Assembly (NCBI GenBank): GCA_964422215.1
Contig: CAYRAK010000001.1
Coordinates: 1-42,555 of the forward strand
Reading direction: 5' to 3'
Source: an uncultured Clostridia bacterium
Lineage (GTDB): Bacteria; Aerophobota; Aerophobia; Aerophobales; B3-G15
Length of the DNA stretch: 42,555 bases
The first letter of the stretch is position 1, and the number at the start of each line of letters is the position of its first letter. The notes below the pieces were generated by a model, which did no database searches, was not told where the DNA came from, and worked only from the letters and a program-made list of their open reading frames with translations. Made by a program: the position numbers and the translations under genes. Shown piece by piece: positions 4,339 to 40,658 of this stretch.

Positions 4339-6270
4339 TTAGCTTTTCTTGATTAATTCTGTTACTGTGTTTACAAGATTTTCTATATCTAACCCTTCCA
4401 TCTTGAAAAGCTCATCAGGAAGTCCAGAACCTGTGTATTTTCTAATACCCAACTTGCGGAAACGACAGAAAAGACCGTTTTCTACCAAAAAATTGGCTAT
4501 TATACTCCCTAAACCTGTCTTTACATTATGATCCTCGTAAGTTACGATAATTCCTGTTTTTGCTGCTTCTCTAAGTGCCTCTTCATCAAGATCGCTCCAA
4601 CAAGAGATATTTATCACTTTAACTTTATGTCCTCTCTCTCTTAAAATTTCCCAAGCTTTGATAGCTTTATGCAAGAGACTTCCTGTAGATACTATAGCTG
4701 CTTCATCTCCATCCCTTACCAAATCGGCTTTACCATATACAAATTGATATCCTTCCCCAAATATAGGCTTTCCATCCTCGGAAGTTATAATAGGAAGACT
4801 TGAACGTCCAACTCCCACAAAGAAGTTACCAGGATGAGATGCTATGTATCTTATAACCCGATCGGTTTGATTAGCATCAGCTGGAACAATTATCTTAAAA
4901 CCATAAAGATTGTTAATTATTCCTCCATAATCAATACATTGGTGAGTTTTTCCATCCTGCCCCACATCTATCCCGTTATGAGTACACACAAGTTTTAAAT
5001 TTGTGTGGTTAATATCGTTAAGTCTGTGTTGATTATAAGTTTCATCAACTCCAAATACACCAAAATCGGAGAAGAAAACAACAACCCCTTGGGTAGAAAG
5101 AGCACCAGCAATTGTAGCTGTGTTATGTTCTTGGATTCCTCCTTCAAAAAACCACTTTGGACAGATCTTGGCAAATTTATCTGTTTTCACTGAACCAAGA
5201 AGGTCGCAGTCAAAAACAGCAATAGGAGTTTTATCTTTTTTCCCTTTATTAACAGCTCCAATATCAGCAAGAGCTTTTCCAAAGGCATTTCTATTTGCTA
5301 TTTTTTCTCCTTTCTCATAGTTAGTAAAGTTCCCAATATCAAGATTTATTTTTTCCTCGGGTCTTTTTTTGGAAGAGGAAGGAGGAGAATTTAACTTTCT
5401 TAAAGAAAAGTATTTCTCAAGGTCGTCTTCCAAGCCTAACTCTTTAAGTGCTTCTCTACACTGCTCAACAGATAAAGCTTTTCCATGATACTCGTGCGTA
5501 TTCTCCATAAAGGAGACCCCCTTACCTATAACTGTTCGAGCTAAAATAGCCACAGGGCCGTCTCTGTGTATCGCCTCTCGCAATGCTTGGTAAATCTGCT
5601 GATGATCATGACCATCGATTTCCAAAACCTCCCATCCATCAGCAAGATAGTTTTCTTTTATATTCTGAGGCATAATTTCACTAAGAGGTCCTGAGAGTTG
5701 AATAAGGTTATAATCAATTATTACAGTCAAGTTACTCAAATTGTACTTTTTTGCAAACCTCCTTGCCTCTCCAACCTGACCTTTAGTCTGTTCTCCATCG
5801 CTCATTATTACAAAGCAGTGAAAATCCTTCTCAAGAAGTCTGGCAGCTAAAGCAAAACCACAACCTGCAGAAAGCCCCTGCCCTAGGTTTCCTGTACTCC
5901 ATTCGACCCCAGGAACATCTTTTTCTACATGTCCCTCAAACATACTTCCTGCTCTACGAAAATGAGCAATAACATCATCTATATTGAAAAATCCTAAGCG
6001 ACCCAAAGTAGCATAGACCCCCGGAGAGGTATGGCCATGACTTATAACTATTCTGTCTCTGTCTGGATGGTATGGATTATTTGGCCATACCTTGGCACAA
6101 GACCATAAGGTAAGATATATATCTATAGAAGACATAGATCCTCCGGGGTGACCGGAGCCAGCCACTGTAGTCATTTTTAAAATGTCACCCCGTGCCAATT
6201 TGGATAAATTTTTTAAGTGTGCTACTTTCTCCTCATCCAGCCTCTCCTTTTCAAACCCCCATTGCATCAT
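4339..6270 (-). CDS. tkt: Transketolase (single-polypeptide, about 643 aa)
   Basis: GSGHPGGS TPP-binding N-terminal motif, GDG-type MSDGEQ.EG motif, and pyrimidine-binding and C-terminal domains. Confidence 0.9.
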   Translation of the reverse strand: MMQWGFEKERLDEEKVAHLKNLSKLARGDILKMTTVAGSGHPGGSMSSIDIYLTLWSCAKVWPNNPYHPDRDRIVISHGHTSPGVYATLGRLGFFNIDDVIAHFRRAGSMFEGHVEKDVPGVEWSTGNLGQGLSAGCGFALAARLLEKDFHCFVIMSDGEQTKGQVGEARRFAKKYNLSNLTVIIDYNLIQLSGPLSEIMPQNIKENYLADGWEVLEIDGHDHQQIYQALREAIHRDGPVAILARTVIGKGVSFMENTHEYHGKALSVEQCREALKELGLEDDLEKYFSLRKLNSPPSSSKKRPEEKINLDIGNFTNYEKGEKIANRNAFGKALADIGAVNKGKKDKTPIAVFDCDLLGSVKTDKFAKICPKWFFEGGIQEHNTATIAGALSTQGVVVFFSDFGVFGVDETYNQHRLNDINHTNLKLVCTHNGIDVGQDGKTHQCIDYGGIINNLYGFKIIVPADANQTDRVIRYIASHPGNFFVGVGRSSLPIITSEDGKPIFGEGYQFVYGKADLVRDGDEAAIVSTGSLLHKAIKAWEILRERGHKVKVINISCWSDLDEEALREAAKTGIIVTYEDHNVKTGLGSIIANFLVENGLFCRFRKLGIRKYTGSGLPDELFKMEGLDIENLVNTVTELIKKS

Positions 6271-6285
6271 TCAAACCCCCTTCTA

Positions 6286-6483
6286 CTATTCTTCTTCATA
6301 CTGAATCGCCTCAGTAGGACATTCCTCCGCAGCCTGTTTTATTTCCTCCTCAAACTCGTTGAAATCTGCATCTTCTTTGACAGTGGCAACATCATTCACC
6401 TCAAAAACCTCAGGGCAAGTATCCTCACAAAGCCCACAAGCTGTGCAAGCATCCTCATCAATTCTAACTTCTGTTATTGCCAT
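6286..6483 (-). CDS. Small ferredoxin (single-cluster type, 65 aa)
   Basis: CTACGLCEDTCPEVF ... ECPTEAI cysteine pattern in an acidic protein. The transketolase start follows 15 nt downstream, after an AAGGGGG RBS. Confidence 0.9.
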   Translation of the reverse strand: MAITEVRIDEDACTACGLCEDTCPEVFEVNDVATVKEDADFNEFEEEIKQAAEECPTEAIQYEEE

Positions 6484-6604: not shown

Positions 6605-6633
6605 TTGACAGAGAAAAAGCATTGTGGTAATAT
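6605..6633 (+). promoter_or_regulatory. Sigma70-like promoter with extended -10 for the hydrogenase operon (TTGACA-17-TGgTAATAT)
   Basis: TTGACA at 6605..6610 and TAATAT at 6628..6633, preceded by TGG. It lies 35 nt upstream of the small-subunit ATG. Confidence 0.45.
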
Positions 6634-6668
6634 TTTTTCTCTAGCATTTCTGTATTTGGGAGGAAACA

Positions 6669-7544
6669 ATGCAAATAAAAGAACAAGCTGTTATCTGGCT
6701 TCAGGGAGCAGGATGTACTGGGTGTTCTATATCTGTCATGAATTGTGTAAGTCCCACTATAAGAAATCTGCTACTTGATGAAATTGTTCCTGGAAAACAC
6801 CTCAGTTTTTTATTTCATCCCACCTTAATGGCAGCAAGCGGAGAACTTGCCATTGAGGTAACATTGGGCGAGAAAAAAGAATCAGGTTATCTTCTTGTAG
6901 TTGAAGGAGCAATTCCTACAGCAAAAGGAGGAATATTTGGAACTATTGGTGAAAAAGATGGTAAGCCTCTTACCATTCTTTCCCTCTTTAAGGAACTTGC
7001 TCGGAATGCAGTTGCTGTAATATCTTTGGGAAATTGCTCTGCTTTTGGAGGAATTCCTGCAGCACATCCTAACCCTACTGGTTCAAAATCTGTCGCAAAG
7101 GTGCTTGAGGAGGAAAATATAAAAACCCCTTACATCAATGTACCTGGTTGTCCACCTCATCCTGATTGGTTTGTGGGAACAGTTGCTGACATTATTCTTC
7201 ACGGTCTTCCTTCTGAGGAAAAACTTGATGAACTTAAGCGACCGAAATTCATCTATGGCAAACTTATCCATGAGAATTGTCCTCGCAGGCCCTACTTTGA
7301 TGAAGGAAAATTTGCCAAAAATTTTGGTGAGGAAGGATGCCTATATGAACTTGGTTGTAAAGGTCCTTTTACCTATGCAGACTGCCCTATCCGGCATTGG
7401 AATGGTGGAGTAAACTGGGTTATAGGAGCAGGGTCTCCCTGCCTTGGATGTACAGAACCCATATTTCCTGATATATCAGGCCCTTTTTATCAAAAAATAT
7501 CTGCTTGGGAAAAGTTTAAATTGCAGATCAAAAAGGAGAGTTAA
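6669..7544 (+). CDS. [NiFe]-hydrogenase small subunit, lacking both a Tat signal and a C-terminal anchor
   Basis: WLQGAGCTGCS, GNCSAFGG and PGCPP (proximal cluster). HENC...CLYELGCKGP...ADCP...CLGCTEP (distal and medial clusters). No RRxF twin-arginine leader. Confidence 0.9.
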   Translation: MQIKEQAVIWLQGAGCTGCSISVMNCVSPTIRNLLLDEIVPGKHLSFLFHPTLMAASGELAIEVTLGEKKESGYLLVVEGAIPTAKGGIFGTIGEKDGKPLTILSLFKELARNAVAVISLGNCSAFGGIPAAHPNPTGSKSVAKVLEEENIKTPYINVPGCPPHPDWFVGTVADIILHGLPSEEKLDELKRPKFIYGKLIHENCPRRPYFDEGKFAKNFGEEGCLYELGCKGPFTYADCPIRHWNGGVNWVIGAGSPCLGCTEPIFPDISGPFYQKISAWEKFKLQIKKES

Positions 7545-7545
7545 T

Positions 7546-9105
7546 ATGGAAAAAATTGTCATAGACCCTGTTACAAGAATTGAAGGACACCTTAAGGTCG
7601 AGGTTACGATAGATAACGGCGAAGTTAAAGATGCTAGGGTAAGTGGAACTCTTTTTAGAGGTTGGGAGATCATCTTAGGAGGAAGAGATCCTAGGGATGC
7701 TTCTCAAATTACTCAACGTGTCTGTGGAGTGTGCCCTGCTGCTCATGCAACAGCATCTTGCTTTGCTTTGGATAATGCCTTCGGGATAGAAAGCCTAATA
7801 ACTGATAATGCAAGGATTATCAGAAATCTTATCTTGGGTGCAAATTTTCTTCAATCTCACATTCTCCACTTTTACCATCTTGCATCACTTGATTTTTTTG
7901 ATGTAACAAAAGTTTCCAGTTACGAAGGAGATGATCCTGATCTTCTCTCCTTGAAAAAATTTCTTGGAAGAGATAAGCTCGCTCCTTTTGCTCCCAGATA
8001 CGAAGGAGATTACAGACTTGATAAAAAAACAAATCAAAACTTTGCTTCTCATTATATTAAAGCTTTGCAAATAAGAAAAAAATGTCATGAAATGCTTGCC
8101 ATATTTGGAGGGAAAATGCCCCATAATGTAGGAATGGTTGCAGGAGGAGTAACCGAAAGACCAACTTCAGATAAGATAGCATCTTTTCTTTGGCGATTAA
8201 ATGAGATAAGGGAATTTATCGATAATGTTTATCTTCCAGATGTTTTAGCTCTGACCAAATTTTATGAGGACCACCTTTATGCAGGGTCATCCTCTAGCAG
8301 TTTCCTCTCTTATGGAGCTTTCATTCTTGATAATTCTGAAATTGACCAAACAAAGCAGAACCGTCTTTTTCTGCAAGGAGTAGTAAATCAAAACCTAACC
8401 TATGAGTCACTTAATACTGACAATATTTCCGAATATGTGAAATACAGTTGGTACGCTCAGGATAAATCAAGCCTCCATCCAACAGAGGGTAAAACAGAGC
8501 CAAATGAAGAAAAGAAAAATGGTTATTCTTGGATTAAAGCTCCTCGATATAAGGAAATGCCCTGTGAGGTAGGTCCTGCAGCGAGAATGATAGTTGGATA
8601 CTGTGGAGGAAAGGAGCCTGTGAAAAAAGCTGTAGAAAATATTTTCTCATACATAAAAGGGGAAGTCAAGCTCTTTTCGTCCATTCTTGGAAGACATATT
8701 GCACGAGCAGTTGATGCAAAGCTTATAGCCGATAGTATGGCAACTTGGGTAACTCAGCTGAAAGTTGATGAGCCGGTATACGTTCCCTGCTCAATTCCTC
8801 CTGAAGCAGAGGGTGTAGGATTAACAGAGGCACCTAGAGGAGCACTTGGACATTGGATAAGAATAAAAGACAAACTAATAGATAATTACCAGCTTGTTGT
8901 TCCAACAACATGGAATGCTTCACCAAGAGATGATAAGGATGAGCCAGGACCTTTAGAGAAAGCTCTTTCTGGGCTAAAGATAAAGGATCCCAAAAATCCT
9001 TTTGAAATTGTACGATGTGTGCGTTCCTTTGATCCTTGTCTTGCCTGTGCTGTCCATCTTATTAATGCAAAAAAGAGGAAAATAGCTGAATTTAGAATAA
9101 ACTAG
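7546..9105 (+). CDS. [NiFe]-hydrogenase large subunit
   Basis: N-terminal PVTRIEGH and RVCGVCPAAH, C-terminal DPCLACAVH followed by a 15-aa extension. ATG 7546 was chosen (TAAtATG coupling, AAAGGAGAG RBS) over the track's 7444, which overlaps the small subunit. Confidence 0.9.
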   Translation: MEKIVIDPVTRIEGHLKVEVTIDNGEVKDARVSGTLFRGWEIILGGRDPRDASQITQRVCGVCPAAHATASCFALDNAFGIESLITDNARIIRNLILGANFLQSHILHFYHLASLDFFDVTKVSSYEGDDPDLLSLKKFLGRDKLAPFAPRYEGDYRLDKKTNQNFASHYIKALQIRKKCHEMLAIFGGKMPHNVGMVAGGVTERPTSDKIASFLWRLNEIREFIDNVYLPDVLALTKFYEDHLYAGSSSSSFLSYGAFILDNSEIDQTKQNRLFLQGVVNQNLTYESLNTDNISEYVKYSWYAQDKSSLHPTEGKTEPNEEKKNGYSWIKAPRYKEMPCEVGPAARMIVGYCGGKEPVKKAVENIFSYIKGEVKLFSSILGRHIARAVDAKLIADSMATWVTQLKVDEPVYVPCSIPPEAEGVGLTEAPRGALGHWIRIKDKLIDNYQLVVPTTWNASPRDDKDEPGPLEKALSGLKIKDPKNPFEIVRCVRSFDPCLACAVHLINAKKRKIAEFRIN

Positions 9106-9185
9106 CTTTTAAGAGGACTAAATTTTTCTTAACTAACGAACAAAGAATCAATCAAATGAAAGAGATAGAGAAGGGAGGATAAATT

Positions 9186-9878
9186 ATGCTTGTCTCTGAA
9201 AGAAAACCTTGGAATGAAATACTAGAGTCTTTAGCTGAAGATAAAAATGTTTTTATTATAGCCTGTGGAGGTTGCTCTGATGCTTGTCAAACTGGAGGAA
9301 AAAAGGGATTGGAGGAGCTTAAAAAGAAACTCTTAGAAGAAGGAAAAAAAATAACAGGGAGTTTTGTAGTTGATTTTGCTTGCAACAAAGTCTTAGTGGC
9401 TCTTAAACTTCAAAGATATACCCAGAGTCTTTATAGCTCAGATTCAATCCTTGTAAGTGCCTGTGGAATTGGAGTACAGGCAGTTGCAAATATGGTAGAT
9501 ATTCCTGTTCATCCTGCTGACAATACAGTTTATATGGGTGGATTTCCTGGAGTTTGGCCAGCAGATGAAAGATGCATCCAATGTGGTGACTGCAGACTAG
9601 ATGTAACAGGAGGTATATGCCCTTTTGCTAACTGTCCCAAGAATCTTTTAAATGGAGCCTGTGGTGGTTCAAATAAAGGGAAATGTGAAGTAGATCCTGA
9701 AAAGGATTGCGCTTGGGCAAAAATTTATGAAAGACTGAAGGAGATAGGAAAAGTTGATAATTTAAAAAAGATACATCCTCCTCGGAACTACAGTTTAATG
9801 CAACCTCCTGTTGAACGAAGAAACACTATATTCTGGTCCCTTGAATTTGAAGAAAAAGAAAAAGAGGGGGTAAAATGA
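9186..9878 (+). CDS. metV: MetV-type subunit (methylene-THF reductase C-terminal domain protein, Cys-rich)
   Basis: CPFANCPKNLLNGACGGSNKGKCEVDPEKDCAWAKIYERL matches the MTHFR_C-type signature. It overlaps the metF start by 4 nt. Confidence 0.85.
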   Translation: MLVSERKPWNEILESLAEDKNVFIIACGGCSDACQTGGKKGLEELKKKLLEEGKKITGSFVVDFACNKVLVALKLQRYTQSLYSSDSILVSACGIGVQAVANMVDIPVHPADNTVYMGGFPGVWPADERCIQCGDCRLDVTGGICPFANCPKNLLNGACGGSNKGKCEVDPEKDCAWAKIYERLKEIGKVDNLKKIHPPRNYSLMQPPVERRNTIFWSLEFEEKEKEGVK

Positions 9879-10750
9879 AACTGAGTGAACTTTTTAAAAA
9901 GGGAAAATTTGTTATCACCTCTGAGATCGGTCCTCCAAAAGGGACAAATGTAGAACCTTTGCTTAAGGAAGCAGAAGAACTTAAAGGAAAAGTAGATGCT
10001 ATAAATGTGACAGATATCCAAAGCTCAGTTATGAGATTAGGCTCTATGGCTGTGTGTAAACTTCTAAAGGATAGAGGGATAGAACCTGTATTTCAGCTCA
10101 CATGCAGAGATAGAAATAGACTTGCTTTACAATCAGATCTTCTTTCAGCCTATGTTTTGGGTATAGAAAATGTTCTTTGTCTCACCGGGGATCACACTGT
10201 CTTAGGAGACCATCCTCAATCAAAACCTGTCTTTGATCTTGACTCAGTAAACTTACTCCGTGCAGCGAAGACTTTATGTGAAGGAAAAGATATGGTAGGG
10301 AATAATCTAGATGGGTCTCCTGACTTTTGCCTGGGAGCAGTTGCGAACCCTGGGGCAGATCCACTTGAGCCTCAGATAATAAAAATGGAGGCAAAAGTTG
10401 AAGCAGGAGCTGAATTTTTTCAAACTCAAACCGTATACGATGTGAAACAATTTGAAAAATTTATCCGAGCAACAGAATATCTTAAAGTTCCTATCATGGT
10501 GGGAATAGTTATGCTCAAATCGGCTGGTATGGCACGATTTATGAATGCAAATGTTGCAGGTGTATATGTTCCAGATAAACTAATTAAAATAATGGCAAAA
10601 GCTTCCAAAGAAGAACGCCCAAAAAAAAGCATTGAAATAACCGCCTCCCTCATAAAAGAGATGAAAGGGATGTGTCAGGGAGTACATATTATGCCTTTGG
10701 GATGGGACAAATATGTCCCAGATGTTTTAGAGAAAGCAGGTTTAATTTAA
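9875..10750 (+). CDS. metF: Methylenetetrahydrofolate reductase, anaerobe/acetogen-type MetF
   Basis: FVITSEIGPPKG, INVTD, FQLTCRDRNR and LCLTGDH motifs, with the expected 291-aa length. Confidence 0.9.
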   Translation: MKLSELFKKGKFVITSEIGPPKGTNVEPLLKEAEELKGKVDAINVTDIQSSVMRLGSMAVCKLLKDRGIEPVFQLTCRDRNRLALQSDLLSAYVLGIENVLCLTGDHTVLGDHPQSKPVFDLDSVNLLRAAKTLCEGKDMVGNNLDGSPDFCLGAVANPGADPLEPQIIKMEAKVEAGAEFFQTQTVYDVKQFEKFIRATEYLKVPIMVGIVMLKSAGMARFMNANVAGVYVPDKLIKIMAKASKEERPKKSIEITASLIKEMKGMCQGVHIMPLGWDKYVPDVLEKAGLI

Positions 10751-10762
10751 TAAATCATAAGG

Positions 10763-10790
10763 GGGGCTAAATTAAGCCTCTCTTTTGTTT
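10763..10790 (+). terminator. Putative intrinsic terminator after metF
   Basis: GGGGCT-AAATTA-AGCCTC stem-loop (6 bp including one G-U) followed by TCTTTTGTTT. Confidence 0.45.
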
Positions 10791-10820
10791 GAGAAAAAAA
10801 TAAAAAGCTTCACCTTAAAG

Positions 10821-12569
10821 TTAACTGTAGGCTATTTGTTTGTATATTTCCCACAGTTTGATAGATACATCCTCTTGAAAGATGCTCTTTAGCCATTCAT
10901 TAGGAGAAAAAAGATCTGCAGGAGTAGAGCTAAGTTTTTCCCCCTCTTTTATAGAAAGAAGCTTTATTCTCTCGGAAGGAATATTTTTTTCTCTAAGTTC
11001 TCCTATGTATTCCTTTGAAGTGACAATAATGGCCTGCATTTGGCTATAGTACCAGCTAAAGTATCGCCATAGTACTCTTTTAAGACTACTACTTCCATCA
11101 AAGTATTGAATGAAACTTGAGAAGTTTCGATTATACACTCCAACAACAGGTAAGTTTAAAATTTTTGAGGTAAGAACTCCAGCAACTCCCATAGGACCTG
11201 GAGTTAAGGTATGAATCATGGTAAATTCCTTCTCCTCGCAATAAAAAAGTATCTCCAAAAGAGAGGGAATGTAAAGACGAATTTCGGGAAAAAGAGGAAA
11301 GGGAAAATTTGTCACCGAGGAAAAAACTTTTATTCCATTTGTGGAAAAATTTTCTTTTTTACTGCAACAGATAATCTCCATTTTTTCTTTTTTGGAAAGG
11401 GGTAAATTATCAGGTAGGGAAAAGGACAAAAAATTATCATTTATATCGACAAAAATAGCAACTTTTAAAGGCTCCTCTTGGTTAAGGTAATGTTTTTTTA
11501 CTCTCCAGAGAAAGTTTCTATCTTTATTTTGATAGGCAAGACCAAAAAGATAAGGAAAAAGTGCAGTATAAAGAGGGAGATTTTTATTAATCTTTCTCAC
11601 ACTTCTTACAGTGTGTAGAAAATGCATTCTTTTTGAAAAATGCCTTATAAAATAAGAAAGAAGAAAACCTTTAAAAAAGAGTGAGACTATTTTTTTTCTT
11701 TTAAAAAAAAGCTTTTCTAAAAACCTACCTTTTATTCTCCCAATAACTATATTATCGAAAATTCCAGAAATTTTTTTCCCTTTCAATCTATATTTGTAGA
11801 ACTTATACCCCGTCGCATAGATACTTCTTCCTATAGTTAGAGAAGTTCCGCTTTTTCCCCCAGGTTTAGATCTTCCCTCTTTTATGGAGATTAAAAAATC
11901 CTCTATTCCTTCTCCTTCTCCAACAGTATATGTTTCTCCAATGTAAAGACCACCATGGTCATCTGAACCACCCACCATAGATTTTTTCCAGGGTGTACTA
12001 GAAACGGGAGAGAGATTGTATCGATTGCTGAGTTCTTCAATTTTCTCTGGAGTAAGATTTTGGAGTATTTTCTCTAGAAGGCAATTATCCTTTTCTTTTT
12101 GAACACCATTTCGAACCTCAAAAACATCAAACAGAAGGAGCATTTTTTCCCAATTCTCAGGTTTAAGTTTTCCATTAACAGAAGAAAAAGGATGAGCTAC
12201 AAAATGAATTATTCTCTCAAGACTAAAATATCTTACAAGTTCGTAAATATTATCCTTTAGCCTCTGGATTTCCTCATGTTGTCTCTCATTTATATTGAGG
12301 GCAACAACATGAATTTGACATCCATCTTCAGGAAAAGTGACAGTAACCTCTTCACTAATAAAAACATCATCTAGATGAGCAATTTCCAATGCACCCAGAA
12401 TTGAGTCATGATCGGTAATGGTAACAAAATCCATTCCTCTTTTTTTGGCAATCCTGTAAACTTGCTTCGGAGGAGTGTAAGATTCTGAATGAATTATTGT
12501 TTTTAGCACACCTTTTTTAATCTCTGAGTACTCAGAGTGTACATGCAAATCTACCTTGCGCAGAGGCAT
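10821..12569 (-). CDS. PHP-domain metal-dependent phosphoesterase fused to the N-terminal half of a GT4-like glycosyltransferase
   Basis: N-terminus VDLHVHSEYSE...VTITDHDS...GGSDDHG (PHP motifs). The C-terminal ~150 aa resemble a Glyco_trans_4 N-domain but stop before the sugar-nucleotide-binding half. ATG 12569 is preferred over TTG 12584. Confidence 0.65.
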   Translation of the reverse strand: MPLRKVDLHVHSEYSEIKKGVLKTIIHSESYTPPKQVYRIAKKRGMDFVTITDHDSILGALEIAHLDDVFISEEVTVTFPEDGCQIHVVALNINERQHEEIQRLKDNIYELVRYFSLERIIHFVAHPFSSVNGKLKPENWEKMLLLFDVFEVRNGVQKEKDNCLLEKILQNLTPEKIEELSNRYNLSPVSSTPWKKSMVGGSDDHGGLYIGETYTVGEGEGIEDFLISIKEGRSKPGGKSGTSLTIGRSIYATGYKFYKYRLKGKKISGIFDNIVIGRIKGRFLEKLFFKRKKIVSLFFKGFLLSYFIRHFSKRMHFLHTVRSVRKINKNLPLYTALFPYLFGLAYQNKDRNFLWRVKKHYLNQEEPLKVAIFVDINDNFLSFSLPDNLPLSKKEKMEIICCSKKENFSTNGIKVFSSVTNFPFPLFPEIRLYIPSLLEILFYCEEKEFTMIHTLTPGPMGVAGVLTSKILNLPVVGVYNRNFSSFIQYFDGSSSLKRVLWRYFSWYYSQMQAIIVTSKEYIGELREKNIPSERIKLLSIKEGEKLSSTPADLFSPNEWLKSIFQEDVSIKLWEIYKQIAYS

Positions 12570-12588
12570 TCTCCTCACTCCCAAATGG

Positions 12589-13986
12589 TCAATTTGTCGA
12601 AGTTAAGCTTATCTTTTCCTGTTTAACACTCCTAAGAGAGGCCATCATTCTTTCCTTCATTCTTGAACAGGTTTTCCTGTGATGCAGATTAAAAATAAGG
12701 AGAGGAAGAGCATATTTCCATCTTCCTCCTGAAAATATTCCTAAAAGTCTCCTAAAAATGGATAATATACTGAGAGTTTTAACATATGCCCAGGCAAATC
12801 CTGCATCTAGTTCGGCGGGACTCATCTTCTTTGGTTTAAATACAACATGTCCACAGTCGTAATTGGACCAGTCCCTGTCAATAATTCTTCCTTGCTTTTC
12901 CAATTCTTCAGCAAGTTTTGTCCCTGGAAGAGGGGTAAGAATAGAATATTGAACTCCATCGAGCCTTGTCTTTACTGCAAAATCAACTGTTTTCTTAAAT
13001 ATGTCTTTATCATGCTCGTCCATCCCAAATATGAATGCTCCATGAATAAATATACCATACCGATGGAATCTATTTATCGCTTCCTTATAGAACTCGACTT
13101 TATTCTGAGATTTTCCTACTTCTTTCAGTGCCTCTTCTGACACGGTCTCCAATCCTACAAATAAGGCTTTGCAACCACTTTCTGCAGCCAGTCTCAAAAG
13201 TTCCTCATCATAGGCAGCATCTATGGAAGATTGACTCATCCATATTATCTTAAGTGGAATTAATGCCTTAAAAAGCTTCTTTGCGTACTTTTTATTACCC
13301 ATAATGTTATCATCCAAAAAAACAAACAAATTCTCTTTCAATCCCTTTCCTCTATTTGCTTTAATAAATTCAACTACTTTATCTATGGGGCGAAATCTTA
13401 TCTTTCTTCCAAAAAGTCGAGTTACAGAACAAAAGGAGCAATTATAAGGACAGCCCCTTGTAAGGTGAAGCACCTTTGTAGCAATGTATTTATCTTTTTT
13501 ATCCTTTTTTTCTAAAATATCCCAACGAGGAAAAGGAATTTTTGAGAGATCAGGAAAAGTTTCATTTTTGTAAATTTTTTTTAAATTATCCTTTCCTCCT
13601 TGTTTAAAATCATTTATTAGTTTCTCCCAGATGCCCTCTGCCTCTCCAATTACAATAGCATCAGCATGCTCCAGTCCCTCTTGGGGTAAAACTGAAACAT
13701 GAGGACCTCCCAACACTACAGGAACTTTTCTTTTTCTAAACTCATCAGCAATTTCATAGGCCCTGGGAGCAGTGGAGGTCATAGTGGTTATTCCCACAAG
13801 ATCAACTTTTTTCTCAAAATTAATAGATTCAATATTTTCATCTGTTAAACTTACTTCAATATCGTGCGGTGTCACTGCAGCTACATTGAGAAGCCCAAGG
13901 GGAGGCACTTTAAAAACCTTTCTTCTTTTGGCTCTTTTTGCCTGCACCTTATCAGTCCAAGTAGGGGCGATAAGCTCTATTTTCAT
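12589..13986 (-). CDS. B12-binding-domain radical SAM protein (class B)
   Basis: N-terminal Rossmann-like cobalamin-binding region (VDLVGITTMTS..VVLGGPH), then the CPYNCSFCS radical SAM cluster motif. Confidence 0.85.
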   Translation of the reverse strand: MKIELIAPTWTDKVQAKRAKRRKVFKVPPLGLLNVAAVTPHDIEVSLTDENIESINFEKKVDLVGITTMTSTAPRAYEIADEFRKRKVPVVLGGPHVSVLPQEGLEHADAIVIGEAEGIWEKLINDFKQGGKDNLKKIYKNETFPDLSKIPFPRWDILEKKDKKDKYIATKVLHLTRGCPYNCSFCSVTRLFGRKIRFRPIDKVVEFIKANRGKGLKENLFVFLDDNIMGNKKYAKKLFKALIPLKIIWMSQSSIDAAYDEELLRLAAESGCKALFVGLETVSEEALKEVGKSQNKVEFYKEAINRFHRYGIFIHGAFIFGMDEHDKDIFKKTVDFAVKTRLDGVQYSILTPLPGTKLAEELEKQGRIIDRDWSNYDCGHVVFKPKKMSPAELDAGFAWAYVKTLSILSIFRRLLGIFSGGRWKYALPLLIFNLHHRKTCSRMKERMMASLRSVKQEKISLTSTN

Positions 13987-29968: not shown

Positions 29969-31318
29969 ATGGAAAGGAATGGAAAAAACTTATGGGAAGA
30001 GCTTTTAAGGAAAATAAAAGATAAAATAGATAAGAGGAATTTTGACTTGTGGATAAAACCTCTTCAGTTTCATTCTTTCTCCTCTAATAAGCTTGTAATA
30101 AGGGTTCCAAATCAATTCTTTAAAGAAAGAGTGGAAGAAAAGTATCTCCCTATGCTTCAACTAAAGCTAAATGAACTGGAAAAAGAAAAAATAGAACTCC
30201 AATTTTACGTTTCTCCTAAGGAAGAAGAACATCACTTAAGGCAGGGATTAACTCGAGAAAAGACATCGCTTCTCACAAGTAGGAACATCTACTATTCTCG
30301 GTTAAATCCCCGCTACAACTTTGATACTTTTGTGGTGGGAAACAACAATAGACTTGCCCATGCTGCTGCACTTGCAGTAGCTCAATCTCCCTCTGCTACT
30401 TACAATCCCCTTTTTATATACGGTGATGTAGGACTTGGAAAAACTCACCTTTTACAAGCTATTGCTCATTTTATCCTTGAAAATAAACCTGAACTTACTT
30501 TCTCATATCTCTCGTCTGAACAATTCACCAATGAGCTGATTGATGCAATAAGGGATGATAAAACGGTAGAATTTAGAAAAAAGTATAGAAACACAGATGT
30601 GCTACTTGTAGATGATATACACTTTTTAGCAGGAAAAGAAAGAACTCAAGAAGAATTTTTTCACACCTTTAACGCTTTATATGAGGCTCATCGCCAAATA
30701 GTTTTATCAAGTGATAGACCACCAACAGAAATTCCAACACTGGAAAAGAGACTTCGTTCTAGATTTGAGTGGGGACTGATTACTGACATTCAACCTCCAG
30801 ATCTCGAAACAAGAATTGCTATTTTAAAGAAAAAGGCTTCTTTGGAAAATATAAATTTGGATGATTCAATAGCAGTTTTTATTGCAGAAAGAGTAAAAAC
30901 CAACATCCGCAAACTTGAAGGATGTCTTATGAGACTTGTTGCATACTCTTCTCTTTACAATGAGGAGATCACTGTTGATTTAGCAAAAGAAATTCTCAAA
31001 GATATAATTCCTCCTAAGGAGACAAAATCAATTACAATTGAGGCAATTCAAAAACATGTAGCCCAGTACTATAAAATTAAAGAATCTCAATTGGTAGGAA
31101 AAAAGAGAGTAAAATCTGTTGCTTTCCCGAGACAGATAGCTATGTATCTTTGTAGAGAGCTTACAGAGTATTCTTTTCCTGAAATTGCAAAAAAGTTTGG
31201 AGGCAAAGACCATACAACAGTTATCTATGCTTGGAGAAAAATAAAAGAGGAAAGAATGAAAAATAAAAACCTTAATAGAGAAATAGAGGAACTCATTCAT
31301 AAGATAAGAACCTATTAA
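29969..31318 (+). CDS. dnaA: Chromosomal replication initiator protein DnaA
   Basis: NPLFIYGDVGLGKTHLL Walker A, LLVDDIHF, sensor motifs, and the C-terminal DNA-binding HTH (FGGKDHTTVIYAWRKI). Confidence 0.97.
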   Translation: MERNGKNLWEELLRKIKDKIDKRNFDLWIKPLQFHSFSSNKLVIRVPNQFFKERVEEKYLPMLQLKLNELEKEKIELQFYVSPKEEEHHLRQGLTREKTSLLTSRNIYYSRLNPRYNFDTFVVGNNNRLAHAAALAVAQSPSATYNPLFIYGDVGLGKTHLLQAIAHFILENKPELTFSYLSSEQFTNELIDAIRDDKTVEFRKKYRNTDVLLVDDIHFLAGKERTQEEFFHTFNALYEAHRQIVLSSDRPPTEIPTLEKRLRSRFEWGLITDIQPPDLETRIAILKKKASLENINLDDSIAVFIAERVKTNIRKLEGCLMRLVAYSSLYNEEITVDLAKEILKDIIPPKETKSITIEAIQKHVAQYYKIKESQLVGKKRVKSVAFPRQIAMYLCRELTEYSFPEIAKKFGGKDHTTVIYAWRKIKEERMKNKNLNREIEELIHKIRTY

Positions 31319-31344
31319 TAACATGTTCAAAAGAGAGTAAAATA

Positions 31345-31484
31345 TGTGTATAGATGTGGATAAGTTAAACAAAAAAATAAAAATTTTTTCCTTCCAAGAA
31401 AAACTGTGGAAAAATTATCAAGTTATCCACCATGAATTTATCCTGTTAAATATAAGCTAGGTAATGTTTTAAAATGTTATCCAA
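31345..31484. other. oriC candidate: DnaA-box cluster plus an AT-rich unwinding element downstream of dnaA
   Basis: TGTGGATAA at 31355..31363 (perfect). One-mismatch boxes at 31404..31412, 31422..31430 and 31476..31484. Two-mismatch boxes at 31345..31353 and 31437..31445. The A/T run is at 31364..31392. Confidence 0.6.
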
Positions 31485-31522
31485 ATAATTCACATCCTCT
31501 ACTACTTTTACTAAGGTTATAT

Positions 31523-32329
31523 ATGTATAAAAAAAGAGAAGAAGTAATAGGTCTTTTAGCAGGTGGAGGAGACTTACCAGTTGTTTTTGCGTCTAATGCG
31601 AAAAAAAATGTAATTGTTGTAGGTGTTAAAGGTATAACTTCAGAAAAATTGAAAGAAAACGCTAAAAAAGTTTACTTTTTAAATCTCAATGAGTTTGATA
31701 AATGTCTTGATTTTTTTCAGAGAGAAAAAGTCCACAAGATAGTTTTATTAGGTAAATTTAACAAAGATCTTCTTTTTCGCCACTTAAATGTTTTTAATTC
31801 TTTTAAAAAAATACTTTCAAAACTGGAAAATGGACAAGATCTTTCTTTTTTTAAGCTTATAGATAAAGAAGCTAAAAATAGAGGAATACAAATTACAGAG
31901 CCTTTATCTTATCTTTCCCACCTTCTTGTAAAGGAGAAGAGATTAACTAAAACTTTCCCTACTAAAAAGGAACTCGAGGACATAAAGTTTGGGTGGAAAA
32001 TTGCTAAAGAGCTTGCTAATTTAGACATAGGTCAAACGGTGGTTGTAAAAAATTCAACCGTAATTGCAGTAGAGGCGATAGAAGGTACAGATGAAACTAT
32101 TCTTAGAGCTGGACGTTTAGGGGGAGAGGGAAATGTAGTAGTTAAAGTTGCAAGACCTTTTCAGGATATGAGGTTTGATATTCCAGTAGTAGGACCTACC
32201 ACTCTTATGAATATGGCTAAGGTGAAATGTAGAGTTTTAGCTATAGAAAAAGAAAAGGTAATATTACTGCACAAACCAGAGGTTGTAAGAATTGCCAATG
32301 AGAGTAAAATTAGTATAGTAGGAATATAA
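31523..32329 (+). CDS. lpxI: LpxI-family UDP-2,3-diacylglucosamine hydrolase (DUF1009)
   Basis: GLLAGGGDLP N-terminus, DIGQTVVV, AVEAIEGTDETI and PFQDMRFDIPVVGPTT, typical of LpxI. Confidence 0.8.
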   Translation: MYKKREEVIGLLAGGGDLPVVFASNAKKNVIVVGVKGITSEKLKENAKKVYFLNLNEFDKCLDFFQREKVHKIVLLGKFNKDLLFRHLNVFNSFKKILSKLENGQDLSFFKLIDKEAKNRGIQITEPLSYLSHLLVKEKRLTKTFPTKKELEDIKFGWKIAKELANLDIGQTVVVKNSTVIAVEAIEGTDETILRAGRLGGEGNVVVKVARPFQDMRFDIPVVGPTTLMNMAKVKCRVLAIEKEKVILLHKPEVVRIANESKISIVGI

Positions 32330-32693: not shown

Positions 32694-34550
32694 ATGAGAT
32701 ATAAAGAAGAAAAAAAAGAGAAAATTAAGGTCACCTTTTTACCTGAAGGCAAAAAGGTGACCTTAATTTCTCCTATAAGCTTAAAAGAAGCTATAAATAA
32801 AGCTAATATTGATTTCCGTTTTCCTTGTGGAGGAAAAGGATTATGCGGCAAATGTAAAGTCAAAGTTGAAGGCAATGTAAATTCTCCCACATCTAAGGAA
32901 AAGGAAGTTATTTCAGATTTTTTGAACAAAGGATATCGACTTGCCTGTCAGGTTATCCTGAAAGGTGATGCCCAGGTTGAAATACCTGCCTCTTCTTTAA
33001 TATCAGATCTTCAAATTTTAACAGAATACTCAAAAGAAAAATTAAAAATAGATCCTTCAGTTAAAAAGCTCTATATACATCTTCCCAAACCTACACTTGA
33101 GGATCAAATCTCAGATGTAACCCGCATAAAAAGAGAATTTGAAAAGAAAGGTTTTGGTAGATTAAAAGTAGAACTGGATATTGCAAAAAAAATCCCTTAC
33201 TTACTACGCAAAAGTGATTTTAAGGTTACTTTAGTTGTGGATGATGGAGAACTTATAGCTTTGGAGAAGAACGATACGAGAGGAAAAAATTTTGGTGTTG
33301 CTTTTGATATTGGTACTACTACTCTTGTTGGAACTTTAGTGGACTTAGATACAGGGGAAAAAGTTGCCACAAAAGCTCTTTTGAATCCACAGATAAGTTA
33401 TGGAGACGATGTTATATCTAGAATAAGCTATATTCAGGAAAATCCAAATAGGTTAGCCGAACTTCAAAGGGAGGTACTTGAGGGAATTAATAAAATAATC
33501 AGTGATTTACAAAAAACTACGGGAGTTAAAAAAGAGAATATATATCAGGCAACTTTTGTAGGAAATACAGTAATGCAACATCTACTTTTGGGTATAAATC
33601 CTCTAAATTTGGCTTTATATCCTTATGTTCCAGTGATCCAGGATCCTGTAGTTGTACAAAGTTTTAAAATTGGAGTGGATATCAATCCTTTTGGTAAAGT
33701 TTACATATTCCCCAACATTGCAGCTTTTATTGGAGGAGATACGGTAGGAGTAATTTTAGCTACCGGACTTCACCAAAAAAATAAAAAAATAAGATTAGCC
33801 GTTGATATTGGAACCAATGGAGAGATAGTTTTGTCTTATAAAGGAAAATTAATAGCTGCATCTACTGCTGCTGGACCTGCTTTTGAAGGAGCCCGTATAA
33901 CTCAAGGAATGTGGGCTCAAAAAGGAGCAATAGAAAAAGTAAAACTTGAAGAAGGGAAAGTTATTGTTCAAACTATAGGAGGTGGGGAACCACAAGGTAT
34001 TTGTGGAAGTGGTCTTATAGATATTGTAAGTGAGCTTTATAGAGAAGGAATAATTGATATATCAGGTAGAATAAAGAGTCCTGAAGAACAACCTGATGTA
34101 TGGAAAAAGAGGGTTGTGAGAGATGAAAATGGAAGTAAATTTATTTTAGTAGAAAGAGAAAAAAAACCTCATCTTTTTATTTCTCAAAAGGATATACGAG
34201 AATTTCAGCTTGCTAAGGCTGCAATTTGTACAGGCATAAAGATGCTTCTTATGTTCTCAAATATAGAAAGGGAACATATAGAGGAAGTTCTTATAGCAGG
34301 AGCATTTGGAAATTATATAAACATACAAAATGCCTTTCAAATAGGACTTTTTCCTACCTTTCCTAATGCAGAGATAAAAAATGTTGGTAATGCTGCAAGT
34401 ATGGGTGCTATTAAAGCTCTTCTATCTAAAACTTACCGCAAAGAAGCAGAAAAAATTCCCTCCCAAGTCCAGTATGTGGAGCTTGCGGCTAATCCTCATT
34501 TTCAAGATATTCTTACAGAATCTATCCTCTTAGGCGAACAAGGTAACTAA
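32694..34550 (+). CDS. Corrinoid activation/regeneration protein (RACo-type): N-terminal [2Fe-2S] ferredoxin plus an ASKHA ATPase domain
   Basis: CGGKGLCGKCKV...C plant-type ferredoxin motif, then FDIGTTT and DIGTNGE ASKHA phosphate motifs. About 620 aa. Confidence 0.8.
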   Translation: MRYKEEKKEKIKVTFLPEGKKVTLISPISLKEAINKANIDFRFPCGGKGLCGKCKVKVEGNVNSPTSKEKEVISDFLNKGYRLACQVILKGDAQVEIPASSLISDLQILTEYSKEKLKIDPSVKKLYIHLPKPTLEDQISDVTRIKREFEKKGFGRLKVELDIAKKIPYLLRKSDFKVTLVVDDGELIALEKNDTRGKNFGVAFDIGTTTLVGTLVDLDTGEKVATKALLNPQISYGDDVISRISYIQENPNRLAELQREVLEGINKIISDLQKTTGVKKENIYQATFVGNTVMQHLLLGINPLNLALYPYVPVIQDPVVVQSFKIGVDINPFGKVYIFPNIAAFIGGDTVGVILATGLHQKNKKIRLAVDIGTNGEIVLSYKGKLIAASTAAGPAFEGARITQGMWAQKGAIEKVKLEEGKVIVQTIGGGEPQGICGSGLIDIVSELYREGIIDISGRIKSPEEQPDVWKKRVVRDENGSKFILVEREKKPHLFISQKDIREFQLAKAAICTGIKMLLMFSNIEREHIEEVLIAGAFGNYINIQNAFQIGLFPTFPNAEIKNVGNAASMGAIKALLSKTYRKEAEKIPSQVQYVELAANPHFQDILTESILLGEQGN

Positions 34551-37382: not shown

Positions 37383-39017
37383 TTAACCAAAAATCCAGAG
37401 AAAAAGAGTGAAAAATAAAAATCCTGCTATAAAAAGTAAAAGAGCATTATTGAGGCCGCATCTTATATTTCTTATAAATTTAAGAACTTTTTCCCCTTTT
37501 GAACTTGTAATTAGAAAGTAAAGGAAGAGGCCTAAACTAAAGATAAATATGCTTTGTCCTAATCCAGAAAGGGAATAAATCTGCAAGTTAAAGCTTATCC
37601 TCTCTTTTAAAAGGAGTCTTGAGAGTACTTCTGTTCCAGTGACGGGAAATATTCCTGTAAAAAGGCAAAGCAGGGAGAGAATAATAAGGGGCGCTAACAT
37701 TTTTTTCGGTATTATTTTTTTATTAACTTTCTTTTCTCCTCTTCGGAAAATTTGCGAAAGCTTTATAAAGGAGGCTACTGTACCCACATTAGCTGCAAAA
37801 ATGAGATAGTATAAGATAGGATATCTTTTAAAAGAAAAAAAGATAAGTCTTTTGCTAACATAACCATTAAAAGGAGCTATACCACAGATAGAAAGGGCAC
37901 CTACTAAAAAACTTATTTTCACAAGAAACATTTTTTCTCCATGGATACTGATTTTATTAATTTCTCTTTTCCCTGTAGTGTAAATTGCTGTACCTATTGT
38001 TAAGAATAAAAGACTTTTAAAAAGAGAATGATTTAATATATGGTATAAAGAAGCGACAAGGGATACAGACGTTGCGACTCCAAAGCTTGCTATTATAAAT
38101 CCCATCTGAGAGATTGAGGAATAGGCAAGAAGCTTCTTTGTATCGTCTTGAGCTATAGCCCAGATAATTCCTAAAAAAGCAGTAAATACTCCAATCCACA
38201 TAAAAAGTATTTGAAGGGTTAAAAATGGTATAAAATCTAATATGCGCCATACTGCAAGGAAGGATACTTTAATCATTACTCCAGAGAGAGTTGCAGAAAC
38301 AGGATGAGGTGCAAAGGCATGAGCATCAGGTAGCCAGGTATGAAAGGGAATAAACGCTGCTTTAACTCCTATTCCTGCTATAAGAGATATAAGGGAAAGG
38401 GAAAAAAGAGGAGAGTTTTTCTCAATTTGGGTTTTAAGATGAGATATCTCTCTTAAAGAAAGGATACCCGTTTGCTGGTATAAAAGGGCAATTCCCAAAA
38501 GATAAAATCCAATTCCTAGGCTACTTATAAGAAGATAGTTAAAGCTTGCTATTATGGATTTTTCCTTCTGAGGATAGGCTATTAAAATATAAGATGCGAT
38601 GGAGAGTATTTCAAAAAAGACAAACATATTAAATAGGTCTCCGGTAAGTATAACTCCCTGCATTCCCCCAAGAAGGATCAAAAAGAAAAAATAAAATTTG
38701 TATTCATATTTTTCCTCCCCCATAGCAAAAAGGAAAGCTAAAAGGGTGATAAGCAGTCCTATAAGAGAGCTGATCCAGGCAAGACCATCTATATAAAGGC
38801 AAATTCCTATAGGCTCACGCCAACCTCCCACTGAATAACTAATGGTGCTTCCTTTAAAAACAGGAGGAAAAATAAACGCTAGTAAAATTAGACAGGTGCA
38901 AAGTGCTCCTACAACAATTACCTGAACCTGTTGCTTTGAGAGAAAATATTTTCCTAAAAGGGATATAAAAGAGGCTAGGAAGGGTATGAGGATAAGGAGA
39001 ATAATCAAATTTTCCAT
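37383..39017 (-). CDS. mrpD: Mrp/Mnh antiporter subunit D-like (NuoN/NuoL-type proton-conducting subunit; MbhH-like)
   Basis: 544-aa polytopic protein with antiporter-like motifs (WLPDAHAFAPHPVSA, LLAYSSISQMG). Confidence 0.85.
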   Translation of the reverse strand: MENLIILLILIPFLASFISLLGKYFLSKQQVQVIVVGALCTCLILLAFIFPPVFKGSTISYSVGGWREPIGICLYIDGLAWISSLIGLLITLLAFLFAMGEEKYEYKFYFFFLILLGGMQGVILTGDLFNMFVFFEILSIASYILIAYPQKEKSIIASFNYLLISSLGIGFYLLGIALLYQQTGILSLREISHLKTQIEKNSPLFSLSLISLIAGIGVKAAFIPFHTWLPDAHAFAPHPVSATLSGVMIKVSFLAVWRILDFIPFLTLQILFMWIGVFTAFLGIIWAIAQDDTKKLLAYSSISQMGFIIASFGVATSVSLVASLYHILNHSLFKSLLFLTIGTAIYTTGKREINKISIHGEKMFLVKISFLVGALSICGIAPFNGYVSKRLIFFSFKRYPILYYLIFAANVGTVASFIKLSQIFRRGEKKVNKKIIPKKMLAPLIILSLLCLFTGIFPVTGTEVLSRLLLKERISFNLQIYSLSGLGQSIFIFSLGLFLYFLITSSKGEKVLKFIRNIRCGLNNALLLFIAGFLFFTLFLWIFG

Positions 39018-39355
39018 TCTTCTTTTTTTATTAAATTTTCTATTTGAGAGATACTCAAAGTTTTATATTGACGGTAAATTCTTAAAATTAAGGAAAGAGC
39101 AAGAGCTGTTAGACACACTCCAATAACTATTGCTGTTAAAACTAGCGCTTGGGGTAGGGGATCCACAGGGACACCTTTTATCTCCTTTTCCATAATAGGA
39201 GCAGTTGATCCAGTTAGAGAACCGAGGTAGACAAATAAAATTACAATAGAGCTATTAAATATATTAAGAGCGATAACTTTTTTAATGAGGTTGTCTTTTT
39301 TTATCATTCCCCATATTCCCAGAATAAAAAGAATCACAATCAGGTAAAAAATCAT
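39005..39355 (-). CDS. mrpC: Mrp/Mnh antiporter subunit C (NuoK-like; MbhG-like)
   Basis: VDPLPQALVLTAIVIG motif, 116 aa, 3 TM. Confidence 0.8.
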   Translation of the reverse strand: MIFYLIVILFILGIWGMIKKDNLIKKVIALNIFNSSIVILFVYLGSLTGSTAPIMEKEIKGVPVDPLPQALVLTAIVIGVCLTALALSLILRIYRQYKTLSISQIENLIKKEEWKI

Positions 39356-39416
39356 GATAACTCTTTATAGTTAAATTTTTTCTAAAATAATTATGTTGGA
39401 AGATTCATTTAAAATC

Positions 39417-40305: not shown

Positions 40306-40317
40306 AATAAAACCTTT

Positions 40318-40614: not shown

Positions 40615-40658
40615 TCCTCCCTCACATTTCCTGATAAATAAACTTAAAAGGTTTGTTG

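Follow-up and report, generated by a model that had tools for sequence, protein, structure and literature searches.

The window analysed here, positions 1 to 42,555 (42.5 kb) of contig CAYRAK010000001.1, comes from an uncultured bacterium whose nearest relatives are named Ca. Aerophobetes. It carries four co-directional genes on the forward strand, hydS-hydL-metV-metF, which by sequence encode a [NiFe]-hydrogenase and a methylene-tetrahydrofolate (methylene-THF) reductase of the MetVF type. The small subunit of the hydrogenase, predicted to be cytoplasmic, is encoded by hydS (6669–7544; 291 amino acids (aa); PF01058 and PF14720) and the Group 1a-like large subunit by hydL (7546–9105; 519 aa; PF00374 at 519 bits). 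A spacer of 80 nucleotides (nt; 9106–9185), containing the ribosome-binding site GGGAGGA, leads to metV (9186–9878; 230 aa; PF12225 at 115.8 bits), for the iron–sulfur subunit of the reductase, and metF (9875–10750; 291 aa; PF02219 at 135.7 bits), for its flavin-binding catalytic subunit. The hydS–hydL junction reads TAAtATG, while metV and metF share a 4-nt ATGA overlap through which translation of metF is predicted to be coupled to that of metV. On the same strand, a sigma-70-type promoter-like element (6605–6633; TTGACA-17-TAATAT with TG before the -10, a 10/12 match) lies about 35 nt 5' of hydS, and metF is followed by an intrinsic-terminator-like hairpin (10759–10784; 10-bp stem with 5 GC pairs, then TTGTTTGAGA, with a T-rich tail to 10794). 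The open reading frame (ORF) 3' of this hairpin (10821–12584) is on the minus strand, convergent to the operon. An earlier note on this DNA (the original prediction) had described the four genes between a promoter-like site and a terminator, the coupling of hydS to hydL and the overlap of metV with metF, and all of these were found at the positions it gave. Its terminator, first placed at 10763–10790, exists as a hairpin and is essentially the same site as the one located by our scan.

A single promoter match of this kind is not significant alone, as 11 promoter-like sites were observed in the scan and 16 were expected from shuffled sequences. We accepted the element at 6605–6633 because it is conserved across Aerophobetes lineages: TTGACA-16/17-TGGTATAAT was present about 35 nt 5' of hydS in five of six lineages, with differing upstream genes. 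It scored 11–12 out of 12 in four of these (L001, L005, L014 and L015), and the window, with its own 10/12, makes the fifth. In the spacer between hydL and metV, a consensus scan gave no promoter-like or terminator-like match, and its predicted RNA fold was ordinary and no better than that of shuffled sequence (z = 0.83), as expected from the earlier description of an 80-bp gap free of a hairpin, T-tract or promoter. The same gap is just 19–22 nt in relatives L005 and L001. Co-transcription of all four genes is thus well supported at the sequence level by the conserved promoter, the shrinking gap and the signal-free spacer.

The pairing of this hydrogenase with MetVF is widespread. A scan of species-representative genomes returned at least 579 confirmed relatives, and the best 80 of these, all of them metagenome-assembled genomes, came from Aerophobetes, Anaerolineae, Dehalococcoidia, Elusimicrobia, Spirochaetota, Bipolaricaulia, Fraserbacteria, Poribacteria, Deltaproteobacteria, Actinomycetota, Nitrospira and others. 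The module also occurs in Planctomycetota, and is found in about a dozen bacterial phyla in all. Complete metagenome-assembled genomes that carry it include CP070842.1 and CP070642.1. Seven homologues with 58–76% identity all had the order hydS-hydL-(hycI)-metV-metF, in unrelated flanks (DUF3108/PhoU-Pst, a CbiMNQO transporter and others). Linkage was quantified in 86 non-redundant related loci, and was counted where at least 1.5 kb of downstream DNA was present and MetV lay within 6 kb. The motif for twin-arginine translocation (Tat) was missing from 76 of the small subunits, 65 of which had the necessary downstream sequence. MetV followed within 6 kb in 61 of these 65 Tat-less loci by the automatic rule and in 64 after inspection, as three of the four misses (L024, L028 and L032) were overlap or contig-end artefacts. 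The conservation of hydSL-metVF in related genomes, on which the original prediction depended, therefore holds well outside Aerophobetes.

The converse scan, of metagenomes and with a MetV alignment rather than the hydrogenase as query, gave 80 loci (46–100% identity), which were counted if they had at least 700 nt of upstream sequence. HydL was encoded upstream of MetV on the same strand in 67 of 69 such loci, so this MetV subfamily is almost exclusively hydrogenase-linked. The hydSL-metVF adjacency is far beyond chance, and is not unique to this genome. The remaining two loci retain HydS and have lost HydL; in these (L167 and L170, approximately 1400–2800), hydS (57–59% identity) sits between metV of type B and a kinase gene, and they may represent a decayed module or a re-purposed small subunit. 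Two types of MetV/MetF do occur, and where an Hdr/MvhD-type pair is also present (L049, L060, L062 and L083), the hydrogenase-type MetV is still directly 3' of the hydrogenase. Distance matrices for 45 loci were correlated at 0.89 for HydS–MetV, 0.89 for HydL–MetV, 0.88 for HydS–HydL, 0.81 for MetV–MetF and 0.74 for HydL–HycI, all of these mirror-tree values being inflated by shared phylogeny. They fit the inheritance and evolution of the module as one unit.

The hydrogenase exhibited the features expected of a catalytic enzyme. HydL scored 711 bits against NF033181, the NCBIfam model for the large subunit of nickel-dependent hydrogenases (curated cut-off 600), which 17 of 17 aligned relatives passed too, and PF00374 spans its full length. 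Its best match in the Protein Data Bank (PDB) was the [NiFeSe] hydrogenase of Desulfovibrio vulgaris Hildenborough (5jsu_B, 476 bits), ahead of the [NiFeSe] enzyme of Desulfomicrobium baculatum (444 bits), E. coli Hyd-1/Hyd-2 (~320 bits), the cytosolic Group 2 enzyme Huc (212 bits) and Mvh (117 bits); nothing closer than the [NiFeSe] enzymes was found among the PDB sequences searched. Both Ni–Fe motifs, R58-C60-G-V-C63 and D496-P-C498-L-A-C501-x-x-H504, are shared without change by 17 family members. As Ni ligand the second motif (DPCLAC) has Cys498 and no selenocysteine, and the HysA model gave 578.6, under its cut-off of 780. In HydS, the ligands of the proximal (C16/C19/C123/C161), distal (H201/C204/C224/C230) and medial (C239/C258/C261) clusters were kept in 73–74 of 74 relatives. 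The medial site (residues 241–261; window 7389–7451) has three Cys, with NWV replacing the NWC of [NiFeSe] enzymes. Because the fourth medial Cys of those enzymes is Val here, the sequence, though [NiFeSe]-like overall, probably holds a medial [3Fe-4S] cluster like that of standard [NiFe] enzymes. HydSL is thus predicted to be a complete catalytic heterodimer of Group 1a type, [NiFeSe]-like but with Cys, an assignment made from PDB similarity and motifs. A HydDB call of group 1a has been published for a HysAB–MetVF locus (PMC11287216).

Could the hydrogenase instead be an H2 sensor, regulating metVF or Wood–Ljungdahl expression rather than donating electrons? A gene for a membrane histidine kinase (6TM_PilS, HisKA and HATPase_c; 9573–10976 in L010) recurs near the module or metF in 27 of the 86 loci, mostly in Chloroflexota, and is directly 3' of hydL in L010 and Anaerolineae-type loci. 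There is none in the 42.5-kb window or in most loci, however, and HydL is closest to catalytic Group 1a (476 bits), with cytosolic Group 2 well behind (Huc, 212 bits). HydL also keeps a 15-residue C-terminal extension after H504, a HycI-type maturation endopeptidase gene adjoins hydL in 39 of 68 related modules, and the gas-channel residue is an invariant Val62 (in CGVC) where sensors have Ile. From these last three properties we concluded that HydSL is not a sensor, and we give the regulatory explanation hardly any credence. The large subunit, whose classification as a regulatory sensor would have undone the original prediction, is of the catalytic type by sequence and closest to Group 1a reference structures.

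Unlike its closest structural relatives, HydSL is predicted to remain inside the cell. HydS matched positions 38–313 of the NiFeSe small-subunit model, with the leader part missing, and its residue 4 aligned to residue 6 of the mature small subunit of Dm. baculatum (1cc1_S, 275 bits). There is no RRxF motif in HydS and no in-frame extension 5' of the ATG at 6669, and the cluster motif begins at residue 12. No hydrophobic membrane anchor was found at its C-terminus. Because the entire Tat leader is absent, HydSL must, on this prediction, stay in the cytoplasm. Domain scans of the 42.5-kb window gave no gene for a cytochrome b, cytochrome c3, diaphorase, Hdr, MvhD, RnfC, Complex1_51K or HybA/NrfD partner. 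The alignment, the ORF check and the scans thus bear out the earlier view that the enzyme has no Tat leader, anchor, cytochrome b or diaphorase partner, and that the Hdr/Mvh-like and Rnf-like subunits of characterised MetVF variants are missing here. The enzymes from D. vulgaris Hildenborough (Hys) and Dm. baculatum are the closest structures (476 and 275 bits), with subunits of the same size, the same Ni ligands and a small subunit that likewise carries three clusters. In contrast to the window enzyme, with no leader, Cys498, three medial Cys and a cytoplasmic partner, they are Tat-exported, donate to periplasmic cytochromes, and have selenocysteine and a four-Cys medial cluster. By sequence HydSL belongs to Group 1a, but it has neither the Tat leader nor the respiratory partner typical of that group.

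Five relatives in our set were Tat-positive. These had the order hydL-hycI-hydS and a C-terminal hydrophobic anchor, and metVF was present in none of the five. In the two that were inspected (L065, 3479–8864; L092, 8001–13220), hydS was followed by a gene for a HybA-like ferredoxin and then one for an NrfD membrane subunit. Their large subunits are 55–57% identical to HydL, so that L065 and L092 differ from the window in gene order, Tat leader, anchor, HybA-like/NrfD genes and lack of metVF, yet share an insertion (VPG) in the small subunit. HybA-type proteins are the usual direct electron acceptors in Hyb-type hydrogenases. In this hydrogenase family, then, the electron acceptor would be the product of the gene that comes next after those of the hydrogenase, and in the cytoplasmic members this gene is metV. 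By analogy, MetV appears to fill the place held by the HybA/NrfD partners in periplasmic, membrane-anchored relatives. The Tat-positive sequences did not serve as an outgroup for telling which localisation is ancestral, as a neighbour-joining tree (no support values) nested them inside the Tat-less ones.

The reductase genes encode what appears, from domains and adjacency, to be a type II MetVF core. MetF covers PF02219, the MTHFR TIM-barrel, at profile positions 2–287 of 287. MetV has eight invariant C-terminal Cys residues (C130, 133, 136, 145, 150, 159, 167 and 175), in principle enough for two [4Fe-4S] clusters, plus C27/C30/C66. A possible explanation of docking to the small subunit, that the N-terminal domain of MetV is an MvhD/FlpD homologue, was rejected (hhalign probability 1.3%), and a PDB sequence search with MetV gave no match. 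MetVF contains flavin mononucleotide (FMN) and about 7.5 Fe per heterodimer. NAD(P)H is not a substrate for it, and what supplies its electrons in the cell is an acknowledged problem (PMC8760232), as the original prediction had said. Purified MetVF oxidises reduced ferredoxin in vitro, and ferredoxin as donor gives negative ATP yields in models (PMC8760232). The donor question is open because the ferredoxin route has this negative ATP balance and NAD(P)H is not used.

We consider it likely, though well short of certain, that HydSL-MetVF is a soluble cytoplasmic H2:methylene-THF oxidoreductase, with MetV as the electron acceptor for the distal cluster of HydS. HydL would oxidise H2 at a standard Ni–Fe site, and the proximal, medial and distal clusters of HydS would carry the electrons onward. 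From the surface-exposed distal cluster they would pass directly to the Cys-rich clusters of MetV and from there to the FMN of MetF, which would reduce 5,10-methylene-THF to 5-methyl-THF. What we infer here is the formation of the complex, the cluster-to-cluster transfer, the direction of H2 uptake and the absence of energy coupling. The conserved linkage and the catalytic class of the hydrogenase support the direct, H2-linked reductase that was originally proposed, and H2 probably feeds methylene-THF reduction directly in carriers of the module.

Several observations weigh against this proposal, in addition to the inflation of the mirror-tree values. The VPG insertion after residue 38 of HydS was considered as a docking site and rejected, as Tat-bearing relatives share it and it is specific to the family and not to the partner; no partner-specific surface feature was found in HydS. 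An AlphaFold2 model of MetV had a mean confidence (pLDDT) of 75.6 with the Cys-rich part at low confidence, and a Foldseek search of the PDB with it gave a best E of 9e-3, to generic alpha/beta folds only. There are no hycI or hyp genes in the 42.5-kb window. The module in the window adjoins no other Wood–Ljungdahl gene, the sole related one being a RACo gene 22 kb away. In addition, by our electron balance, an H2-dependent step that conserves no energy would provide Rnf or Ech with no reduced ferredoxin to spare, and acetogenesis from H2 + CO2 alone would yield approximately zero net ATP. The module is therefore better suited to serve as an electron sink or H2-recycling route, in carbon assimilation or in life at low H2 than in classical acetogenesis.

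What if the two enzymes are only co-regulated? The hydrogenase might reduce a carrier in solution, such as ferredoxin, flavodoxin or thioredoxin, that MetVF then oxidises, with the operon serving joint expression. The oxidation of reduced ferredoxin by purified MetVF (PMC8760232) is in keeping with this, as is a small ferredoxin gene near the module in three Aerophobetes lineages. In the window this gene (6286–6483) is divergent from the operon and encodes a single-cluster ferredoxin of 65 aa; the other two lineages are L005 and L016. It was missing from the other loci and phyla, however, and is tied to a transketolase gene (tkt), beside which it lies in L005, about 4.7 kb past metF. The block hydS-hydL-metV-metF, together with the two genes that follow it (for a glycosyltransferase of family GT4 and a radical SAM enzyme), is inverted relative to the ferredoxin–transketolase pair between the window (4339–6483; 6669–13986) and L005. 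Because the orientation of the block differs, we concluded that the ferredoxin belongs with tkt and not with the hydrogenase. It was rejected as a partner of the module since it is missing from most loci and accompanies transketolase, consistent with a block inversion. Of the redox partners named by the original prediction, MetV/MetF are thus conserved, whereas the divergent ferredoxin is not, moves with transketolase and is absent outside Aerophobetes.

Other evidence also speaks against a soluble carrier. Genes for other carriers were not seen repeatedly beside the module, and this lack of a conserved carrier gene weakens the case for indirect coupling. Reduction of ferredoxin (approximately -450 mV) by H2 is unfavourable at low H2. 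MetV occupies the slot of the HybA-type iron–sulfur protein seen 3' of hydS in two periplasmic relatives, and its divergence tracks that of HydS no less closely than the divergence of HydL. We therefore regard coupling through a carrier as unlikely.

The energetics favour the direct route. With E0' of -414 mV for H+/H2 and -200 mV for methylene-/methyl-THF (values cited in PMC9586279), the calculated ΔG0' of H2-driven methylene-THF reduction is approximately -41 kJ/mol, and we estimate approximately -15 to -20 kJ/mol at nanomolar H2. H2, whether external or from internal fermentation, would drive the methylene-THF step without NADH or ferredoxin. A carrier-free route of this kind is sensible at the low H2 of sediments, where reduction of NADH or ferredoxin by H2 is unfavourable.

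The same complex might mainly run in reverse, oxidising methyl-THF to methylene-THF and releasing H2, in a reversed Wood–Ljungdahl oxidation of methyl groups or acetate beside H2 scavengers. [NiFe] hydrogenases of this type are reversible, and many carriers of the module are sediment Dehalococcoidia, Anaerolineae and Deltaproteobacteria, often proposed to be oxidative (PMC6472368). The reaction is calculated to be feasible below approximately 0.6 Pa H2 at a methyl-/methylene-THF ratio of about 100, yet it is strongly endergonic at standard conditions (+41 kJ/mol). In the cell, the Group 1a relatives serve in H2 uptake, and the operons are ordered like the reductive methyl branch (fhs-folD-hydSL-metVF). 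This order is seen in a Planctomycetota metagenome-assembled genome (MAG; acsE-fhs-folD-hydS-hydL-metV-metF) and in a Dehalococcoidia MAG (RACo-cooC-acsD-acsE-fhs-folD-hydS-hydL-hycI-metV-metF-nuoE-nuoF-fdhA-like). FolD, Fhs, AcsE, AcsD or CooC homologues lie no more than 8 kb from the module in many other loci. A mainly oxidative role thus seems improbable to us, though it may apply to some lineages at very low H2, and methylene-THF reduction remains the direction we favour.

Alternatively, energy could be conserved by bifurcation, in which two H2 would reduce methylene-THF in a downhill reaction and, jointly with it, ferredoxin in an uphill one. In principle the step releases enough energy for this, but the in-situ energy of about 15–20 kJ/mol (an estimate) is too small for ferredoxin reduction, and MetVF alone is not known to bifurcate. 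Neither HdrA, MvhD nor another known bifurcating flavoprotein is encoded in the window or in most loci. The arrangement in Anaerolineae is the exception, as hydS-hydL is inserted there in an hdrA-mvhD-metV-[hydS-hydL]-histidine kinase-metF cluster that is followed by a second metV-metF pair, which recalls Mvh–Hdr and the Moorella MetFV-HdrABC-MvhD complex (PMC5736913). We consider bifurcation quite improbable for the enzyme as a whole, and the ferredoxin-coupled version of it that was first entertained is unsupported for the four-gene form, as there is no known bifurcating subunit in the window.

The composite cluster of Anaerolineae (L018, 500–17000; also L010, L020–L022, L028, L030, L037 and L041) has the order acsE ... 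hdrA-like - mvhD - metV(type B) - hydS - hydL - histidine kinase - metF(type B) - metV(type A) - metF(type A) - folD, and is a candidate for an H2-driven bifurcating variant. An example of the Hdr-linked type of MetV is encoded at 6401–7015 of L018. It matches the 'two metVF sets flanked by phoBR' described in DscP3, where no link to a hydrogenase was made (PMC5736913).

The proposed enzyme can be compared with the characterised forms of MetVF. In the type IV complex of Moorella thermoacetica (MetFV-HdrABC-MvhD), the MetV/MetF core is likewise joined by a co-encoded electron-input module. That module is HdrABC-MvhD with NADH, however, with no hydrogenase catalytic subunits, and none of its genes are in the window; type IV hdrA/mvhD features are combined with a hydrogenase solely in the Anaerolineae-type relatives. 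The type III enzyme of Acetobacterium woodii (MetVF-RnfC2) has the same MetV/MetF pair, with the input module docked by a MetV-like domain. Its input is the NADH-oxidising RnfC2, whereas the window has no RnfC-like subunit and the only co-encoded input is the hydrogenase. Plain MetVF of Clostridium ljungdahlii (type II) is again the same pair, and its input is not known. Judged by its genes, HydSL-MetVF would therefore be a type II core fitted with a new input module, the counterparts of which are RnfC2 in type III and HdrABC-MvhD in type IV.

The proposal also resembles the hydrogen-dependent CO2 reductase (HDCR) of A. woodii and Thermoanaerobacter kivui, in which a soluble hydrogenase is wired by small iron–sulfur subunits to a Wood–Ljungdahl reductase with no NADH or ferredoxin (PMC7005907). 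The likeness is in logic only: HDCR has the [FeFe] hydrogenase HydA2, the formate dehydrogenase FdhF and HycB2/3, none of which are in the operon, whereas here a Group 1a-type [NiFe] heterodimer is paired with MetV/MetF. The proteins are non-homologous and act at another step of the pathway.

The adjacency itself is not new. HysAB next to MetVF was noted in one sentence on Ca. Bipolaricaulia MAGs from Great Salt Lake in 2024, for a locus of the same kind as that in the window, in one lineage and with no biochemistry reported (accessible part of PMC11287216). That part of the report makes no mention of the missing Tat leader and anchor, the conservation across phyla, the reciprocity of MetV or the way in which Tat-bearing relatives differ. 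The MetVF forms described in Sewell 2017, Merino 2020 and Colman 2022 are all linked to Hdr/Mvh or Rnf. Our literature search for a hydrogenase–MetVF enzyme found no biochemistry, structure or survey beyond that single mention. The claim of a 'new solution' to the donor question thus holds in so far as we found no characterised enzyme, but not for the gene adjacency, which the same sentence already records.

The module offers a natural answer to the question of the MetVF donor for a large set of organisms, namely H2 via a dedicated cytoplasmic hydrogenase. Such enzymes fall into 'Group 1a' on classification, and are as a rule taken for periplasmic hydrogenases of respiratory H2 uptake (e.g. 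PMC6472368 and PMC11287216). From the sequences considered here, this periplasmic reading is probably wrong for the Tat-less, MetVF-linked majority of the family. A corrected localisation would alter the inferred flow of H2 and carbon in sediment Chloroflexota, Aerophobetes, Bipolaricaulota and others. If the proposal is true, HydSL-MetVF would be a second carrier-free H2-to-C1 enzyme alongside HDCR, and of biotechnological interest. In its most far-reaching form, to which we would give slightly less than an even chance, it would be a physically assembled, carrier-free, fifth type of methylene-THF reductase, built on a cytoplasmic offshoot of the Group 1 [NiFe] enzymes and acting as the Wood–Ljungdahl reductase of numerous species, uncultured and spread over a dozen phyla, with the HdrA/MvhD form of Anaerolineae being H2-driven, bifurcating and also reducing ferredoxin.

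Aerophobetes have been inferred to use the tetrahydrofolate Wood–Ljungdahl pathway (PMC6472368). The RACo homologue in the window (32694–34550; Fer2 and RACo domains) lies alone between genes for thioredoxin and guanylate kinase, and is consistent with a capacity for corrinoid-dependent methyl transfer or the Wood–Ljungdahl pathway in this genome. In one Aerophobetes lineage (L005, 2722–6362; also L006 and L007), a Ni/Co energy-coupling factor (ECF) transporter of the CbiM-DUF4198-CbiQ-CbiO type is encoded directly 5' of hydS, and may supply nickel to the hydrogenase.

Downstream of the module, two genes lie on the minus strand. The first (10821–12584) encodes a protein of 587 aa with a GT4 domain and weak N-terminal similarity to PHP/CehA-like metallohydrolases, and the second (12589–13986) a B12-binding radical SAM enzyme. 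GT4 and B12-binding radical SAM gene calls of similar size were also found downstream of the module in L005–L007. Elsewhere in the window, a cation/proton antiporter set of Mrp/Mnh type (37383–41425, minus strand; Proton_antipo_M, Oxidored_q2, MnhB and MNHE) has no hydrogenase catalytic subunits nearby. The dnaA gene (29969–31318) lies beside the most AT-rich stretch (GC 0.289, 31001–32000) and the cumulative GC skew minimum (-1.81), and the region 29969–32000 is probably the chromosomal replication origin.

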